A stretch of DNA of 64,000 bases. Origin: Candidatus Oxydemutatoraceae bacterium (GTDB taxonomy: Bacteria; Pseudomonadota; Gammaproteobacteria; Poriferisulfidales; Oxydemutatoraceae). The stretch is from contig CBDCOZ010000003.1 of the NCBI GenBank assembly GCA_965220085.1, positions 544,001-608,000 of the forward strand. The letters run 5' to 3'. Every line of letters begins with the position of its first letter. The first letter of the stretch is position 1. Shown one piece after another: positions 38,707-46,261 of the stretch. The notes beneath the pieces were generated by a model. It saw only the letters and a program-made list of their open reading frames with translations. It was not told the DNA's origin and ran no database searches. The position numbers and the translations under genes were made by a program.

Positions 38707-40732
38707 ATGAGAAATAATAGCATGAACCGACAAACTTCCAATACCGCCCCCTCAAGCAGGCGGAAGCGGTTGTATTTGCAAGCATATAACGCGAAGCAAA
38801 AAGATGTTAATACTACCCCCCCCCCCCCCCCCCCCGCATAGGCGGACAACGCTCACCCGGTTTAGCCTCTGGACGCTGGTTCTGCCAGTCCTGTTTGCCG
38901 TCTGTGAGCCGGTGCAGGCGCAAAACGATGCTCCCCGTGCGCGACCGTCCAGCGTTGATGTGTCCATAGACGCCACCGCCGCATCCCCGTACCGCTTCCA
39001 GTTATCCGACTTCCGCTTCACCGACACGGATGGTGATGCCCTCACCGAGCTGAAGGTGCGGGCGCCCACAAATGGCACTCTGCGGTTGGGCTCCACCGTC
39101 GTCACCGGCACCACCGTGCCGACCGCAACCATTGTAGCCCCGGGCAGCATATCCAACCTCAGTTACTATCCGCCCACGGGCCAGGCACAGACGCGCAACT
39201 ACGACACATTCCGCTTCGCTGTCGACACCGGACACGCCGTCACCTCAGCAAACATCATGACCATCCACCTGTTCAACCCCACTCAGGAGGCCGCCACTGG
39301 TGCGCCCACCGTGTCCGCCGCCGCCGGTGCCACAGCCTGGAACGAGGATGTGACCGTCACCGCCAGCGCCAGCGGCATAACCGACCCCAATGGCATAAAC
39401 ACCGGCTCCCTCAGATGGAAATGGCAAGTGCGGGGGAGCATGGGCGCATACACCGACATCAGCGGCGCAACCGCCGCCACATTCACCCCCCGGCAGGCGG
39501 ATGTGGGAACATTCATCCGCGTCTGCGCCTCTTTCAGGGACCTGCATGCCACGCCGGCCGACGAGACGCGATGCAGCAGCGGCTTCATCATAGCCAATGT
39601 CAGCGATGCGCCGATGGGTGCGGACAGCGAAGTGGATGTGCCCGACACCGCCACCTCCAGCGCGCCGCACGACTTTGACATATCCGACTTTCCTTTCACC
39701 GACGAGGATGGCGACACCATCAACGGCATACGCCTGACCAGCCTGCCCACAAGAGGCGCTCTGGTGGTGGTGGGCGAGACCCTGACCCTGACCGCCAGCA
39801 GCCCGCTGAGCCTGGCCCAGCTCAACGCTCTGGCATACTATCCGGCCGCTGGCGACACCCCGCGGGATGAATACGCATCTTTCACCTATAGAATTGTGGA
39901 TACCAGCACAGGCTCTGCCAACATATCCGAGGATGAATACACCCTGACCATCAACACTTCCACCACCCGGCAGGTTGCCGCCACTGGTGCGCCCGGCATC
40001 ACCCCGGCCCCCGGCCCCACCCACGCCGAGGACACCCGGTTGACCGCCGACACCACCGGCATCACAGAACCCAACAGCATAGACCAGAGCACCCTTAAAT
40101 GGCAGTGGCAATCGCACCCGGCCCCGGCCAGCGGCACTCCGGCCCCCAGTGCCTACACGGACATAGCCGATGCCACCGCCGCCACATTCACCCCATTGCA
40201 GGCCCATGTGGGCATGTACATCCGCGTATGCGCCTCTTTCAGGGATAATCACGCAACCCCCGCCGACGAGGGCCCGCTGTGTTCCGCCGCCGCCCGGGTG
40301 CACAATGTCGACGATGCGCCGGTGGCCCGTAACAACAGAGTTGATGTGCTTTCGTCCGCGGACAGCTCCAACCCCCACCGGCTCAGCCTGGACGACTTCC
40401 TCTTCGCCGATGAGGACGACGACAGCCTTGTCGCAGTGATATTTGTCCATCCGAGAAGAGGATTCATCCTCATTGAGAATGCCGACGGAACATCAACGGT
40501 CGTTCAAGGAGAGGTAGCTGTGGCAGATATAGGTCGCATCTTATATTACCCAGACGTCTTCGACCAGGGGCGGCTTGTTGAGGCATATACCACCATCAGA
40601 TTCCAAGTCGTGACCGGCGATGGCACCGACAACATGACCAGCGCCAACACGGCCGCCGTCACCATAGATCTGGTAGACAACCTCAACCTGCGCTTGCGGC
40701 TGCGCCTCTTCCTGGAAGGCCCGTTGCGGTAA
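38707..40732 (+). CDS. Secreted cadherin-like/Ig-like adhesin 1, frameshifted at a poly-C tract; ends LRLRLRLFLEGPLR
   Basis: GAGG RBS and ATG 38707 give MRNNSMNRQTSNTAP (matches paralog N-termini), which stops at 38841. The body ORF 38804..40732 is in another frame. Signal peptide VQA/Q, three NDAP..DF.F.D.DGD modules and two ATGAP modules. Confidence 0.8.
38816..38835. repeat. Poly-C tract (C20)
   Basis: 20 consecutive C in the signal-peptide coding region. Confidence 0.95.
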
Positions 40733-40774
40733 TGGGAAACATACTTTATATACAAACCACACAGGAGTAATACG

Positions 40775-42298
40775 ATGAACAGACAAATTTTTAATACTGC
40801 CCCAGACTGGCGGGCAACGCTCGCCCGGCGCAGCCTCCGGTCACTTATTCTGCCGGCCCTGTTTGTTATCTGTGCACAGGCGCAGGCGCAGAACGCCACC
40901 GGGGAACCGGGCGTCACGGCGGCCGACAGCGCCAACCTGACCATGGTCGGCCCCAATGAGGACAGCCAGTTGACCGCGGCCCGCGGTAGCATAATGGATG
41001 CCGATAGCATCACCACTTTCACGCCCGCCTGGGCATGGCAGGAGGCCGATGCCCCGGCCAGCGGCGCCCCCATGGACAACGCCTACTCCGCCATAGCCGG
41101 GGCAACCGCCGCCACTTTCACGCCCCTGCAGGCCCATGTCGGCAAGTTCATCCGCGTCTGTGCCACCTTTGACGATGACGGCGGCAACAGCGAGACCCGT
41201 TGCTGGACCTCCGTCGCTGCTGTGGTTAATGTCAACGATGCGCCGGTTGGCCTGCCCAATACCATTTATGTGCCGGCGGGCGGCAATTACACTTTTTCGG
41301 TGGCCGACTTTCCCTTTATCGATGAGGACGGCGACAGTCTAATCATAGCGGGAGTGGGCACGCCCACCAAAGGCACTTTTACCTTCAACGGCAATCCATT
41401 CACCACGGCCAATTCTGATTTCACGCTCGCCCGACTAACCGGCGCAGTTGGCTACAGGCCGCCCGCCGATGCGGGGCCCATGTCCGGCTATGCCACCTTT
41501 GAATGGGCTCCAACCACCAGGGACATCACAGCGGGCAACCTCGACAGGACGACAGTGCTTATCACCATAGATTTGGTGTCGGCCACGGCATCGGCGGCCA
41601 TGGGCGCGCCGACGGTGACGGCGGCAACCGGCATCGCCTACCACGAAGGCGTGGAACTGACCGCCAGCACAGGCACCGTATCCGATGCCAACGGCATCCC
41701 CACCCACACCCGTATCTGGCAATGGCAACAGTCCGCCGCCCAGGCCGGCACATACGCCGACATCCCCGGGGCCGCCGATGTCACTTTCACCCCCCTGCAG
41801 GCCCGTGTCGGCCGATACATCCGCGTCTGCCTCCGCTTCACCGACGGCATAGACGATGACGAGGGTGGCACCGCCGCTTCCCCGACGCTGTGCTCCGCCG
41901 GCGCCGTCATCGCCAGAACCAATTCGGTGAGTGTGCCGACTGCCGCCGGCGAATCAGGGCCCTACGAGTTCAAGCCATCCGACTTCATGTTCCCGGGCGA
42001 TGTCGGCAACCTGCAAAGCGTCACCATACGCACCGCCATAGCATCCGACAAGGGCATATTGCGCAACGGCGCCACCGCAGTGACCGCCGGCGCCACAGTG
42101 ACCGCCGCCGCCCTGCGCAACGGCGACCTCACTTTCTATCCCGCGGGCAGATTCGCCGCCACCCCCAACTACGCCAGTTTCACCTTCACCGTGAACTATG
42201 GCGGCGGCATAAACACCGGAATCCGCACCATGCACATACATCTGGTGGAGCATCTGCGCTTGCGGCTGCGCCTTTTCCTTGAAGGCCCGTTGCGGTAA
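40775..42298 (+). CDS. Secreted adhesin-like protein 2; ends LRLRLRLFLEGPLR
   Basis: AGGAG RBS, AQAQA/Q signal peptide, alternating ATG.P Ig-like and cadherin-like modules. Confidence 0.88.
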   Translation: MNRQIFNTAPDWRATLARRSLRSLILPALFVICAQAQAQNATGEPGVTAADSANLTMVGPNEDSQLTAARGSIMDADSITTFTPAWAWQEADAPASGAPMDNAYSAIAGATAATFTPLQAHVGKFIRVCATFDDDGGNSETRCWTSVAAVVNVNDAPVGLPNTIYVPAGGNYTFSVADFPFIDEDGDSLIIAGVGTPTKGTFTFNGNPFTTANSDFTLARLTGAVGYRPPADAGPMSGYATFEWAPTTRDITAGNLDRTTVLITIDLVSATASAAMGAPTVTAATGIAYHEGVELTASTGTVSDANGIPTHTRIWQWQQSAAQAGTYADIPGAADVTFTPLQARVGRYIRVCLRFTDGIDDDEGGTAASPTLCSAGAVIARTNSVSVPTAAGESGPYEFKPSDFMFPGDVGNLQSVTIRTAIASDKGILRNGATAVTAGATVTAAALRNGDLTFYPAGRFAATPNYASFTFTVNYGGGINTGIRTMHIHLVEHLRLRLRLFLEGPLR

Positions 42299-42340
42299 TG
42301 GGAAACACACTTTATGCACAAACCACACAGGAGTAATACG

Positions 42341-43474
42341 ATGAACAGACAAACTTCTAATACTGCCCCGAACTGGCGGGCAACACTCGCCCGGCGTGGC
42401 CTCCGGTCACTTATTCTGCCGGCCCTGTTTGTTATCTGCGCTCAGGCGCAGGCGCAGAACGCCACCGGCACACCGGCGGTCACAGCGGCCGACAGCGCCG
42501 ACCTGACCATGGTCGGCCCGAATGAGGACAGCGCACTGACTGCGGCCCGCGGCACCATTAACGATGACGATCGCATCACCACTTTCACGCCCGCCTGGGC
42601 ATGGCAGGAGGCCGATGCCCCGGCCAGCGGCACCCCCATGGACAGCGCCTACTCCGCCATAGCCGGGGCCACCGCCGCCACTTTCACGCCCCTGCAGGCC
42701 CATGTCGGCAAGTTTCTGCGCGTCTGCGCCACCTTCGATGATGACGGCGGCAACAGCGAGACCCGATGCTGGACTTCCGTTGCGGCGGTTGTCAACACCA
42801 ATGATGTCAGGGCCGTGCCCAGCAGTGTTGATTTCGCCATCGGTCGCACATCCCGCTTTCGTCTGAGCGACTTTCGCCATGAGGACGAAGAGGGCGATGA
42901 TTATGAGATAAATTCCATGATACTGACGGGGGTGCCCTCACGCACTCTCAGCATCGATGGGGCGCTGAATACACAAACTAATATATCTTTATTCCTAAGC
43001 GACTTCGCTTCAAACCGCGGCGGACTCACATACACACCGCCCGACACAGCCACTGTCGGCAGCAATCGCCTCAGCTTTAATTTCCAAGTGCTTGCCACCG
43101 GCTTTCAAGCAGGCCCTGTCGCCGCCATGACCGTCAATCTGGCGGCCAACAGCGCGCCCGATTTTGGCGATGCATCGGTGGGCACCCGTATTTGGCCGCC
43201 CGGCGCTGCGACCGCGCCTCTGGTATTGCCCGCAGCCACCGGCGGCAATGGCAGCATCGTCTACGGCATAAGCCCGGCCCTGCCCAATGGCCTCGCCTTT
43301 GATGCGGCCACCCGCACCATCAGCGGCACACCCACGGCGGCATCCGCCGTCTCCGAACACACCCTCACCGCCACCGATGCCGATGGCGACAAGGGTACGC
43401 TGCCCTTCGGCATAGACCCGATGCACCCCGTGCGCTTGCGCTTGCGCCTTTTCCTGGAAGGCCCCCTGCGGTAG
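42341..43474 (+). CDS. Secreted adhesin-like protein 3 with a He_PIG-type Ig domain; ends VRLRLRLFLEGPLR
   Basis: Same leader as protein 2; LPAATGGNG..LPNGLAFDAATRTISGTPT..TATDADGD. Confidence 0.88.
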   Translation: MNRQTSNTAPNWRATLARRGLRSLILPALFVICAQAQAQNATGTPAVTAADSADLTMVGPNEDSALTAARGTINDDDRITTFTPAWAWQEADAPASGTPMDSAYSAIAGATAATFTPLQAHVGKFLRVCATFDDDGGNSETRCWTSVAAVVNTNDVRAVPSSVDFAIGRTSRFRLSDFRHEDEEGDDYEINSMILTGVPSRTLSIDGALNTQTNISLFLSDFASNRGGLTYTPPDTATVGSNRLSFNFQVLATGFQAGPVAAMTVNLAANSAPDFGDASVGTRIWPPGAATAPLVLPAATGGNGSIVYGISPALPNGLAFDAATRTISGTPTAASAVSEHTLTATDADGDKGTLPFGIDPMHPVRLRLRLFLEGPLR

Positions 43475-43583
43475 CGCGAATCCCCTGCGGCGGCGAACAT
43501 GATATTTGCCCCGGGTGTCCGATATGTCTTGGCATCCTGCGACCGTTTGCCTGTCGTTTGCCTGTTGCCATCGCTTGGCATAA
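43437..43583 (+). repeat. 147-bp direct repeat, copy 1
   Basis: Matches 46115..46261 with 4 mismatches by manual alignment. Confidence 0.92.
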
Positions 43584-43822
43584 CAAGCATCTGGCGCACT
43601 TCGGCGCACACGATGACTACGCCCGCCGCCGGGCGCACCCTAGAGCGACACCACCCCGTCTATCTTTGCCAATCAGCGCCCATATGGCAAGAAGCCGCTT
43701 GCCCCGAAACTCCCGACGGGCGATGGTGAGTTCAATTCACATGGGAGGAGCTATGCCGGAAACACGCCTGGAATGGGGAATGCTAAATTTTGCGGAGTCA
43801 AAGTGTTCGCTATAATGCCGCC

Positions 43823-44791
43823 ATGAGCAACAAGGCAAAAGAGAGTACGGTGGCGCTTGCCGAATCCATCCTGACGCGGTGGACGGATTCGTTTCCGGTC
43901 CGCAAACGGGTCAGCCGCGGCAATGTCGCCGGAGGACTCGTTCTTTTGGAGCGGTTGAAAACCGGCTTCAATTTGGACATTCGGAGTCATATGACGCCGA
44001 ATGGATTCCAACTGAAAGGGGCGACGGCGGTCAAGGTCGGGGAAATTCTCAAGCGGCACGGGGAAACCCGCCCGCTGGCGAAAGAGGGCGGACGCACCAA
44101 TCGCGGACTGCTCGCCAATTTGAGCCGTCTGCTGGAATTGCTGAAAGCGGAAAAGGTCGGCGCGCTGTCCGGCGCGGCGCGGAACAATCTGCTGGACGCG
44201 ATGCAAAGCGGATTGGCGCGGCGAGCAGCGGAACTGCTGAACGCGAAAAAACTCCCGTTTCATTTCCCGTGCGCAACAACAACCCGAAGCGCCTTGCGCC
44301 GCATTTTGGACGAGGCGAAAGCCCGCGGCAAAGAGGGGGAGGTTGCGCAGCATCTGGTCGGCGCGAAACTTGCGCTGCGATTCCCGAACATCAGCATTGA
44401 AAACCGCCCCGCCAGCGCCGCCGATGAATCGGGCGGACAAGCGGGCGACTTTCTCGTCGGCGACACAGTGTTTCATGTCACCGTCGCCCCCAATACGGGG
44501 CATTACGACAAGTGCGCCGAAAATCTGGACGCGAATCTCCGCGTCTGCCTTTTGGTCTCCAACGGACTGTTGTTTGGCGTCCGCCAATACGCGCACGAGC
44601 GCTTCGGCGACCGCGTCGCGACGGAATCCTGCGAATCGTTTGTGTCGCAAAACATAGAGGAACTGTCCGAATTTTCCGGCGACAAGATTCGCGACGGCTT
44701 TCTGCGCCTGATGGAAACATACAACAAGCGCGTGCGCGAGGCGGAAACCGACTTGTCCCTGTTGATTGACATTCCGGAGTCCGGCAAATGA
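43823..44791 (+). CDS. DUF4928-like protein, candidate restriction endonuclease
   Basis: EGGRTNRG, VAQHLVGAKLALRFP and GDFLVGDTVFHVTVAP motifs; overlaps the MTase start (ATGA). Confidence 0.7.
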   Translation: MSNKAKESTVALAESILTRWTDSFPVRKRVSRGNVAGGLVLLERLKTGFNLDIRSHMTPNGFQLKGATAVKVGEILKRHGETRPLAKEGGRTNRGLLANLSRLLELLKAEKVGALSGAARNNLLDAMQSGLARRAAELLNAKKLPFHFPCATTTRSALRRILDEAKARGKEGEVAQHLVGAKLALRFPNISIENRPASAADESGGQAGDFLVGDTVFHVTVAPNTGHYDKCAENLDANLRVCLLVSNGLLFGVRQYAHERFGDRVATESCESFVSQNIEELSEFSGDKIRDGFLRLMETYNKRVREAETDLSLLIDIPESGK

Positions 44792-45894
44792 CCGCCGCCA
44801 CCCCGCTGACCGCCGTTGAATACTTCGCCGGAATCGGCCTGACGCGCATGGGCTTGGAGCGCGCCGGATGGCGGGTGACATACTCCAACGATTGGAACCC
44901 GGAGCGGGAAAAAATCTACGCGGGATTTTTTTCCAAGAGTTACGAAGTGCGGGATGTCTTTGACATATCGCCGTCCGAGATTCCCAAATCCCTGCTGGCA
45001 ACCTGCTCGTTTCCGTGCGTGGACTTGTCGCTGGCGGGAAAACTGAAGGGGATTAACGGCCCGCATTCGGGCGCGTTTTGGGGGTTTCACCGGCTCCTGC
45101 GGGCGGGCGGCGAAAACACGCCGCCGTTGGTTCTGCTGGAAAATGTCTCCGGCTGGCTTTCCTCAAACAACGGCAGGGACTTTCGCGCCGTGATTGACGC
45201 GCTTAACGGATTGGACTACGCCTGCGATGTTTTCATGCTGAACGCGCGGCATTTTGTGCCGCAAAGTCGCCCGCGTGTTTTTGTAATCGGCATGCGCGGG
45301 GCTCCTAACGCAAGCGCCAATGACTTTCGCCTGCGCGGTCCGGATTTGACTCCGGCAAGAATCGCGGACGCGATTAAGCGCAATTCGGATTTGCGCTGGC
45401 AAATGGCGGACATTCCCCCGCCTCCGCCGCTGATGAATTCCGGTTTGTCGGCGGAGATTGTTGAGCGGCTGGCGGACGACGATGCGAGGTGGTGGCCGCG
45501 GGAGAAAGTGCGGAAGCATTTGGACATGATGTCGCCGCGTCATCGCAAAATGGTTGACGAATTTGCGGCGAATGGAAAGCCGGTTTGTCGGGCGTTTTTC
45601 CGCCGCCGCCGCGCGGAGGGTCAGCGCGCCGAGGTCCGAAGCGACGATATTGCGGGCTGTTTGCGAACCGCCATTGGCGGAAGCGGCAAGCAGTTTTTGG
45701 TCTTGGCCGGGCGGGGCGGCGTGAAAATGCGGACGATGACTTCGCGCGAATACGCCCGATTGCAGGGCGTTCCGGATTCCTTTCCCATTCGCGCCTCTTC
45801 CGAGCGGCGGGCGCTGGACGCTTTCGGCGACGCTGTATGCGTTCCGGCGATTGAATGGATTGCCCGCAACATTCTCGCGCCATTGACCCATTGA
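44788..45894 (+). CDS. C5-cytosine DNA methyltransferase
   Basis: FAGIG, FPCVDLS, LENV, PQSRPRVF, REYARLQG and FGDAVCVP motifs. Confidence 0.95.
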   Translation: MTAATPLTAVEYFAGIGLTRMGLERAGWRVTYSNDWNPEREKIYAGFFSKSYEVRDVFDISPSEIPKSLLATCSFPCVDLSLAGKLKGINGPHSGAFWGFHRLLRAGGENTPPLVLLENVSGWLSSNNGRDFRAVIDALNGLDYACDVFMLNARHFVPQSRPRVFVIGMRGAPNASANDFRLRGPDLTPARIADAIKRNSDLRWQMADIPPPPPLMNSGLSAEIVERLADDDARWWPREKVRKHLDMMSPRHRKMVDEFAANGKPVCRAFFRRRRAEGQRAEVRSDDIAGCLRTAIGGSGKQFLVLAGRGGVKMRTMTSREYARLQGVPDSFPIRASSERRALDAFGDAVCVPAIEWIARNILAPLTH

Positions 45895-46065
45895 CGACAC
45901 CTAGCCACCCTGCCAGACAAGATTGGAGGCAAGTGACAATGTCCGCCGAAGGGGTCACGAGGGCGGCTGCTTGGCGGGGATGTCGCGCTTTCCGCCCTTT
46001 TTCGCCATTCCGGGGTCGCGGAGGGAAATTGACCGCGTCAAAATTCAATTGCGCGAAAAGTTTGA

Positions 46066-46152
46066 CGCGAGGCCGCCGCCGATTCCATCCTCACCATCAA
46101 TCTGTTGCATGCTCTGCGCCTGCGCCTTTTCCTGGAAGGCCCCCTGCGGTAG
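46066..46152 (+). pseudogene. C-terminal remnant of a fourth adhesin paralog
   Basis: After TGA 46063-46065 it reads REAAADSILTINLLHALRLRLFLEGPLR-stop; no start codon. Confidence 0.75.
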
Positions 46153-46261
46153 CGCGAATCCCCTGCGGCGGCGAACATGATATTTGCCCCGGGTGTCCGA
46201 TAGGTCTTGGCATCCTGCGATCGTTTGCCTGTCGTTTGCCTGTTGCCATCGCTTGGTATAA
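46115..46261 (+). repeat. 147-bp direct repeat, copy 2
   Basis: Matches 43437..43583. Confidence 0.92.

Follow-up and report, generated by a model that had tools for sequence, protein, structure and literature searches.

Three tandem genes with Sec-like leaders and an orphan gene remnant share one C-terminal end, LRLRLFLEGPLR-stop, in the 64,000-nucleotide stretch of Candidatus Oxydemutatoraceae bacterium analysed here (the window; positions 544,001 to 608,000 of contig CBDCOZ010000003.1; genes at window 38707-46152). Judged by sequence comparison, this 14-residue peptide, hereafter the tag, is the detached first beta-strand of a C-terminal domain that resembles an X-module plus dockerin, and the split of that domain is well supported. 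Given 217 open reading frames (ORFs) that end in the tag and a single ORF that matches the domain, strand 1 occurs 217 times in the genome and the rest of the domain once. The reading that we favour, at a probability of roughly 0.6, is that the tag would complete this one strand-less protein, the acceptor, by donor-strand complementation, and that the rebuilt module would dock at the cell surface, possibly on the rhombosortase substrate encoded beside it. Far better supported than anchoring are the homology of tag and strand 1 and the presence of just one acceptor that lacks this strand; that the cargo is anchored at the surface, what it would be moored to and how it would be secreted are inferences.

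Scale and conservation of the tag

The genome searched (2.49 Mb, 55.8% G+C, three contigs, C1 and C3 among them) contains 218 matches to the tag pattern, against none for the reversed control. In six-frame translation, LR-stop follows 217 of the 225 occurrences of the motif [FLIVM]LEGP. Among the 217 stop-to-stop ORFs with a terminal FLEGPLR (median 417 aa, longest 15,193 aa), 188 are at least 100 aa long and make up 19.6% of the bases of the genome, and the other 29, shorter than 100 aa, are probably remnants. A crude scan found a signal-peptide-like start in 143 of the 188. One leader type is common to many: a long conserved sequence in most tagged genes starts M(N/K)RQIFNT..., often runs through 6-8 prolines and continues ...RRSLRSLILPALFVVCAQAQAQ, with copies at window 38804-38930, 40775-40900 and 42314-42460 and at many other loci of the genome. 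With conserved leader and tag, both ends of the tagged proteins are thus standardised.

The first-pass annotation had noted that the codon differences among the four copies in the window (CTC/CTT, CTG/CTT, CCG/CCC, TTG/CTG and TAA/TAG) are all synonymous, and had taken the peptide to be selected; both points hold at the scale of the genome, where the codons are free and the peptide is fixed. Synonymous forms are used at every tag codon and all three stop codons are found. The invariant FLEGPLR-stop occurs in 110 different 24-nucleotide versions, and the 45-nucleotide tag region in 202 different versions that encode just 43 different 14-residue peptides. A motif-independent test, for [LIVM]R[LIVM]R[LIVM] followed by seven residues and a stop, returned 226 ORF ends, 206 of them with FLEGPLR and eight with one- or two-residue variants. 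The 60 nucleotides downstream of the stop fall into 157 clusters and the 80 residues before the tag into 20 (of 62, 42, 23, 14, 11, 7, 6, 4, 3, 2 and 2 members, plus nine singletons). The downstream clusters and the varying codons rule out a DNA repeat element. The ordinary last strand of the preceding domain, the outcome that would have undone the original proposal, is likewise ruled out by these at least 20 terminal contexts and by three N-terminal tags (see below). Single-linkage clustering of whole bodies joins 181 of 185 tagged ORFs and does not separate families, because the tagged proteins share shuffled modules. Two tag copies, at C3:629434 and C3:1859564, lack a stop codon and read through into Q... 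or W...; they probably belong to decaying genes.

The tag differs, as first proposed, from PEP-CTERM, GlyGly-CTERM and LPXTG signals: arginine occupies every second position of its first half, with seven more residues from the last of these arginines to the stop, it has no transmembrane (TM) helix or basic tail, and no Pfam or NCBIfam model covers it in the window proteins scanned. It is also found at the other end of proteins. Three proteins of this genome outside the window (C1:23868-25292, C1:36358-37998 and C3:~1171400-1173500), with near-identical leaders, consist of a signal peptide, about 20 residues, the tag, a GGS linker and then PPC repeats or a weakly trypsin-like domain. These N-terminal tags show that the strand is portable and needs no free C-terminus.

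Correspondence of the tag to the first strand of a widespread domain

In three Porisulfidus-like genomes, every giant gene ending in ...LFLEGPFR-stop directly precedes its own 276-aa acceptor gene, the product of which has its own signal peptide, the segments ...VPLQDPYC...VVDWVLMELR... and a dockerin-like motif. Used as a query, this protein has one match in the genome of the window and 27 in the tag-less relative G001, where the matches lie inside giant ORFs. The domain is visible at five of the six G001 loci fetched, at the C-terminus in four and after the signal peptide in one, and reads ...RARVFLQGAYD...M.T.L..LP..QPY..PW...VVDWVLVELR...HHRNH...GDVNRDG.... Since it opens with RARVFLQGAYD, the tag corresponds to its first strand.

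A phmmer search of 1.84 billion representatives, in which the G001 domain was the query, gave 4745 clusters at E<=1e-3 and 1208 at E<=1e-10, and nearly all matches listed begin at query residues 2-12. Sampled members carry LKVFLEGPY, VQAFLEGPF or VKVFLQGPY at the position of the tag, and the consensus of 38 aligned sequences opens with VFLEGPY; the domain spans about 250 residues, is C-terminal and is uncurated. Searches of the fused domain against Pfam, NCBIfam and Protein Data Bank (PDB) sequences gave nothing above threshold, and sub-threshold dockerin matches only. The suggestion in the first-pass annotation that (K/R)xFLEG strands open a larger domain elsewhere is borne out by the 4745 clusters and their consensus opening.

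The tag sequence RLFLEGPLR pairs residue for residue with RARVFLQGAY of G001 and LKVFLEGPY of other bacteria, and conforms to the first-strand pattern [KR]-x-[FY]-L-[EQ]-G-[PA]-[YFL]. This correspondence is by motif and position, as a MAFFT alignment of the tags with the domain misplaced the short tags. The remainder of the domain is absent from the tagged polypeptides, the ORFs of which end right after the strand.

A single strand-less acceptor and its neighbours

A hidden Markov model (HMM) of the domain matches exactly one of the 25,518 six-frame ORFs of the genome (C3:469157-470137, E 1.4e-25, HMM positions 88-280). The match opens at position 88, just past the strand, so that a partner lacking exactly this strand, as the strand-docking proposal had anticipated, does exist. 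It had been expected to be a lipoprotein or an outer-membrane protein, and is instead a soluble secreted one: the acceptor gene (C3:469169-470137, about 74 kb before the window) encodes 322 residues with a signal peptide followed by QRSMNTGLSDFIPADDPYC...VVDWVLVDLR...IVIHHRNH.... Standalone acceptors of relatives have the same build.

Upstream of the acceptor lies a type II secretion operon, gspE-N (GspF at 450 bits, GspG), together with three rhodanese-like genes. The latter sit just 5' of the acceptor (C3:466549-468437), and one such gene is found in the same place in the relative G017 (L063:29-436). Downstream, a secreted protein of 1369 residues starts 11 bp past the acceptor stop. Its tail, GGGGGGGG...TM...RRQRRYE, is composed of eight glycines, a hydrophobic helix and a basic end, and it has a sub-threshold choice-of-anchor U match. 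The next gene encodes a rhombosortase, with a TIGR03902 score of 96 bits that exceeds the cut-off of 84. The pairing typical of rhombosortase systems, the enzyme beside a protein with a glycine-rich, TM and basic tail, is thus found in these neighbour genes and not in the tag.

In all six related loci fetched, one or more acceptor genes are directly followed by a gene for a large GlyGly-CTERM-type protein, and in G011 and G015 a rhombosortase-like ORF, by motif reading, comes next. The 1369-residue protein is conserved in relatives in its C-terminal part only, and the N-terminal ~250 residues of the large proteins align weakly; in G009, the N-terminal domain of the large protein is fused to a complete X-dockerin-like domain. 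For the N-terminal part of the 1369-residue neighbour, a word-index homolog search gave the self-match only, and all scores of an atlas search were below 0.9; the 0.84 of one cluster, in which 13% of the members carry Cohesin, is a lead only. Short charged tandem repeats (MATKDDIKN..., ERMEAKFDDKFKEVDARF...) were noticed in small membrane proteins near adhesin or acceptor loci of two genomes (51713-52294 of L027-L029 in G015, and C3:476689-477525 here).

Models of the fused domain and of the tag with its acceptor

AlphaFold2, run on the 38-sequence alignment of the fused domain, gave a model with a predicted local distance difference test (pLDDT) score of 83 and a predicted template modelling (pTM) score of 0.86, in which strand 1 comprises residues 5-10. 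In a Foldseek search with this model, type II X-module-dockerin chains of clostridial cellulosomes fill the first ten places, with E-values from 4e-5 to 6e-4, and the match after them lies above 0.1. VIA-align gave Z-scores of 8.3-9.1 for eight X-module-dockerin entries (root-mean-square deviation 3.6-4.0, 149-155 residues, 17-23% identity), compared with 4.3 for the next best fold, in alignments that begin at model residue 2-4; this fold match is established for the fused relative only. A fold shared with X-module-dockerin does not prove a common function.

For the complex, acceptor residues 31-322 (45-row alignment) were modelled with gene 3 residues 300-386 in three runs, alongside three controls. 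The runs scored 0.73, 0.15 and 0.69 (median 0.69) and the best control 0.00; among solved complexes, 116 of 157 attain this mark, as do just 2 of 215 mismatched pairs, a calibration that holds only roughly here since an alignment of our own making was used. At least 8% of the contacts agree in the runs, and the pLDDT of the partner is at least 67. Confident contacts of gene 3 are confined to residues 370-383, which are the tag, and those of the acceptor lie in segments 106-113, 129-143, 162-178, 184-199, 210-221 and 236-245, which align by eye with strands of the X-module part. The model supports binding of the tag by the acceptor without showing it. It lends predicted support to the earlier idea that the tag docks by strand complementation onto a shared partner.

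Distribution among relatives

A relaxed tag-stop pattern occurs in 11 of 41 related genomes, in which the controls give 0. The counts are 216 in G000, 36 in G007, 26 in G016, 17 in G018, 16 each in G011 and G015, 15 in G002, 12 in G017, 7 in G003, 5 in G012 and 1 in G005; the pattern is absent from the other three families of the order. The endings (PLR, PFR/PLQ, ALE and ALQ) vary with the lineage, and the variants include ...IRVRIKVFLEGPLR, ...LLRVKLFLEGPFR and ...RVRVFLEGPLQ. G006 and G010 fall outside the relaxed pattern yet have longer-tailed tags, for instance RVFLEGAVIP-stop. Every tag-bearing genome has a standalone acceptor match.

In a collection of genome contigs, the strict 39-nucleotide tag pattern had no match. 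A shorter one (FLEGP-x-(R/S)-stop only) had six, three of them in two Porisulfidus metagenome-assembled genomes; the loci in Hymenobacter, Maribacter and Thermoanaerobaculia were rejected as chance, being out of frame or without an ORF. Across one genome per species for 185,579 species, the G000-type tag was absent outside the family, save for these three chance matches. The search at C-termini and internally that the first-pass annotation had suggested has thus found the tag in several genera, both C-terminal and as an internal or fused strand, with codons that have diverged, which speaks against a motif confined to recent duplicates with unconstrained codons.

A trypsin-like protease domain is found in 11 of the 41 relatives, including the tag-less G001, G004, G005 and G009, and usually without a tag; in the N-terminally tagged protein, Pfam Trypsin_2 matches only weakly, at 16.1 bits where the cut-off is 27.6. 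A tagged S1 protease as a tag-specific enzyme was rejected, the protease domain being spread through the family irrespective of tags. G004 and G009 have 13 and 30 trypsin-like domains, mostly in arrayed ORFs of 3000-3600 aa; in these two relatives without tags, giant proteins have undergone a large expansion of their own.

Interpretation and alternatives

In the mechanism that we favour, the cargo consists of the ~190-217 adhesin-like, Sec-exported proteins that carry the tag strand at their end, and of three more that carry it after the signal peptide. Cargo and acceptor would both be exported to the periplasm, where the tag would insert into the acceptor as its missing strand and so rebuild the X-dockerin-like domain in trans. 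The rebuilt module would then act like the fused domain and most likely dock the cargo on the cell surface. As mooring partner, the candidate is the GlyGly-CTERM protein whose gene directly follows that of the acceptor and which would be processed by the adjacent rhombosortase; transit may occur through the neighbouring type II secretion system. The arrangement could have arisen by stepwise domain fission, from the fused form (G001) via adjacent split pairs (Porisulfidus-like genomes) to one acceptor for ~200 tagged genes. A bolder version, which we put forward tentatively and consider doubtful, is a tag-and-catcher hub. The strand would be a universal address label, borne by a fifth of the coding capacity of the genome, and the one secreted catcher would use it to complete its own fold. 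The X-dockerin so rebuilt would pass through the type II system and plug into a scaffold that is anchored by lipid and processed by the rhombosortase. With such a Gram-negative 'adhesin cellulosome', a host-associated bacterium could exchange surface modules by the hundred on a single mount.

Several observations weigh against complementation followed by docking. Dockerin_1 scores 16.5 bits on the fused form and 15.8 bits on the Porisulfidus-like acceptor, below the Pfam cut-off of 22.9, and has no match on the acceptor of this genome, in which the first calcium-loop motif looks degenerate by eye. Pfam Cohesin has no match in the genome, and an AlphaFold2 model of the conserved N-terminal domain of the GlyGly-CTERM neighbour (eight sequences) reached a pLDDT of 40, with no usable fold. 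Binding rests on one modelling job in which one run of three scored 0.15, and to its rough calibration is added that the halves of a split domain can pass simply by the model completing a familiar fold. G009 and G013 have acceptor-like genes with the tag pattern at control level, the six syntenic loci were picked for closeness of both match types and are a non-random sample, and a single acceptor gene would have to serve ~200 cargo genes.

Complementation might instead lead elsewhere: the tag could be mainly an export signal, as the first-pass annotation also allowed, with a periplasmic acceptor that hands its cargo to the adjacent type II secretion system (piggy-back) and with surface retention secondary or absent. 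This proposal, which we regard as unlikely while giving it some weight, includes the strand complementation and differs from surface docking in the downstream step only. The acceptor gene comes after a full gspE-N operon, tagged proteins with Sec leaders still need a route across the outer membrane, and type II substrate signals are ill-defined, all of which count for it; the widespread fused domain, however, resembles a docking module and no known secretion signal, and the gene order with the GlyGly-CTERM protein and rhombosortase is conserved more widely than the loci compared here show for the type II operon. We think it quite improbable that the tag is an inert leftover, in which an ancestral adhesin truncated after strand 1 was spread by duplication or gene conversion while the standalone protein works alone. 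The tagged genes do form one large segment-shuffling family (181 of 185 linked by single linkage), genes 2 and 3 have a common leader and first modules, and remnants and read-through copies are found. An inert tail should decay, yet 206 of 214 tag-like ends are identical over seven residues in 110 nucleotide versions, the FLEG[PA] core is kept across genera despite differing ends (PLR, PFR, PLQ, ALE, AVIP), and the tag has also moved to the N-terminus in three unrelated proteins, where a GGS linker comes after it.

Two further explanations were weighed. The strict L-R-L-R-L-R of the tags in this genome gives a leucine face and an arginine face, from which the tag, independently of the acceptor, might act alone as an amphipathic strand: it could bind to lipopolysaccharide, capsule or sulphated glycans of the host as an anionic surface, or tags could pair and so link the adhesins together. 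The arginine face, however, is not conserved, as V/I and K/Q/T occur in related genera and T/Q/A in the fused form; conservation is confined to FLEG[PA], which makes up a strand-turn in the domain, and the single strand-less acceptor is left unexplained, so that we hold an autonomous strand to be very unlikely. Little credence, finally, can be given to the idea that a trypsin-like protease recognises LEGPLR or leaves it as its product, whereby C-terminal tags would mimic a cleaved end and a tagged S1 protease would be the sorting enzyme. One of the three N-terminally tagged proteins looks trypsin-like, and the GGS after the tag would suit a cut after Arg, but the Trypsin_2 match is weak, the protease domain also occurs in tag-less relatives and usually without a tag, and in other genera the last residue of the tag is Q, E or P instead of Arg.

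Gene content of the tagged locus in the window

A degenerate FLEGP pattern has four matches in the window against 0.06 expected, and none of 100 shuffles reached four. The reading of the ORFs agrees with the first-pass description of three tandem genes with Sec leaders and a remnant that share the tag, all on the forward strand. Gene 1 (38804..40732, 642 aa) has a Sec-like leader, three cadherin-like modules alternating with Ig-like modules, and the C-terminal tag LRLRLRLFLEGPLR followed by TAA (40688..40732). Gene 2 (40775..42298, 507 aa) has a Sec-like leader, a Cadherin_4/Big_9 module and the same tag peptide and stop codon (42254..42298). Gene 3 (42314..43474, 386 aa), nearly the same as gene 2 in its leader and first ~150 residues, carries a He_PIG last domain (residues 312-367) before the tag, VRLRLRLFLEGPLR followed by TAG (43430..43474). 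NCBIfam added only weak ZirU-type matches to these genes. The tag had been said to follow unrelated last domains: He_PIG does end gene 3, whereas the Pfam Cadherin_4/Big_9 matches of genes 1 and 2 lie in earlier modules. From the internal repeats, the last modules of these two genes read as the same cadherin-like type.

The orphan remnant (46092..46152, forward strand) reads ...ILTINLLHALRLRLFLEGPLR followed by TAG. It retains about 20 codons 5' of the tag that still resemble an adhesin end, and the upstream gene body is absent. It was correctly seen as a tag without its gene, and turns out to be one arm of a 147-nucleotide direct repeat around an inserted cassette. The left arm (43437..43583) comprises tag codons and 109 nucleotides downstream, and the right arm (46115..46261) is 97% identical to it. 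The cassette between them (43790..45894), outside the tag system and like both arms on the forward strand, encodes a DUF4928 protein (43790-44791) and a C5 cytosine DNA methylase (44788-45894), likely a restriction-modification pair. The layout of the whole (window 43437-46261) looks as if the cassette had been inserted by, or had caused, a duplication at the end of an adhesin gene.

Comparison with known systems

If the favoured reading is true, the tag would represent a class of bacterial surface-sorting signal without a described counterpart, with no membrane helix and no processing enzyme, in which recognition is folding. A large domain family of thousands of clusters, at present unannotated, would gain a function, and about 20% of this genome would be accounted for. 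Nature would also have supplied a minimal peptide tag, apparently usable in any position, together with the catcher that belongs to it, which could be a useful tool, and the relatives would offer a clean evolutionary series for the splitting of a domain into tag and receptor. Searches of Pfam, NCBIfam and the full-text literature outside subscription-only sources (for the motifs, for dockerin with rhombosortase and for strand complementation with sorting signal) gave no description of the tag and domain system.

The closest structural parallel to the unsplit domain is the type II X-module-dockerin (e.g. PDB 2b59, 5k39, 4wi0), which binds type II cohesin in clostridial cellulosomes. The modelled domain and this dyad both have an Ig-like module packed on a dockerin-like module, align over the whole chain and stand at the C-terminus of large secreted proteins, there as a docking module. 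Here, by contrast, the dockerin cut-off is not reached, no cohesin was detected, the organisms are Gram-negative and strand 1 of the X-module resides on other proteins, an arrangement that, to our knowledge, has not been described for cellulosomal modules. Completion of an Ig-like fold that lacks one strand by an amphipathic strand of another polypeptide is the principle of chaperone-usher and type V pili; there, like subunits are polymerised through chaperone/usher or protease steps, whereas here ~200 unlike cargos would share one acceptor. In SpyTag/SpyCatcher and split-GFP, as here, a tag of 13-16 residues supplies a single strand, the catcher with the rest of the domain is separate and the tag can be used at either end of the cargo; those systems are man-made and SpyTag forms an isopeptide bond, while there is no sign of a covalent link here.

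A common C-terminal element on many Sec-exported surface proteins is also the hallmark of GlyGly-CTERM/rhombosortase, PEP-CTERM/exosortase, LPXTG/sortase and the type IX secretion system (T9SS). The tag has neither the hydrophobic helix nor the basic cluster of GlyGly-CTERM, PEP-CTERM and LPXTG signals, and would be read by a binding protein and not by a processing enzyme; the T9SS C-terminal domain is a beta-sandwich of ~70-100 residues, compared with only 14 residues, free of Pfam and NCBIfam matches, in the tag. The X-dockerin fold and the donor-strand principle are known; a strand that would serve as a genome-wide label, read by one strand-less receptor, is not a known arrangement.

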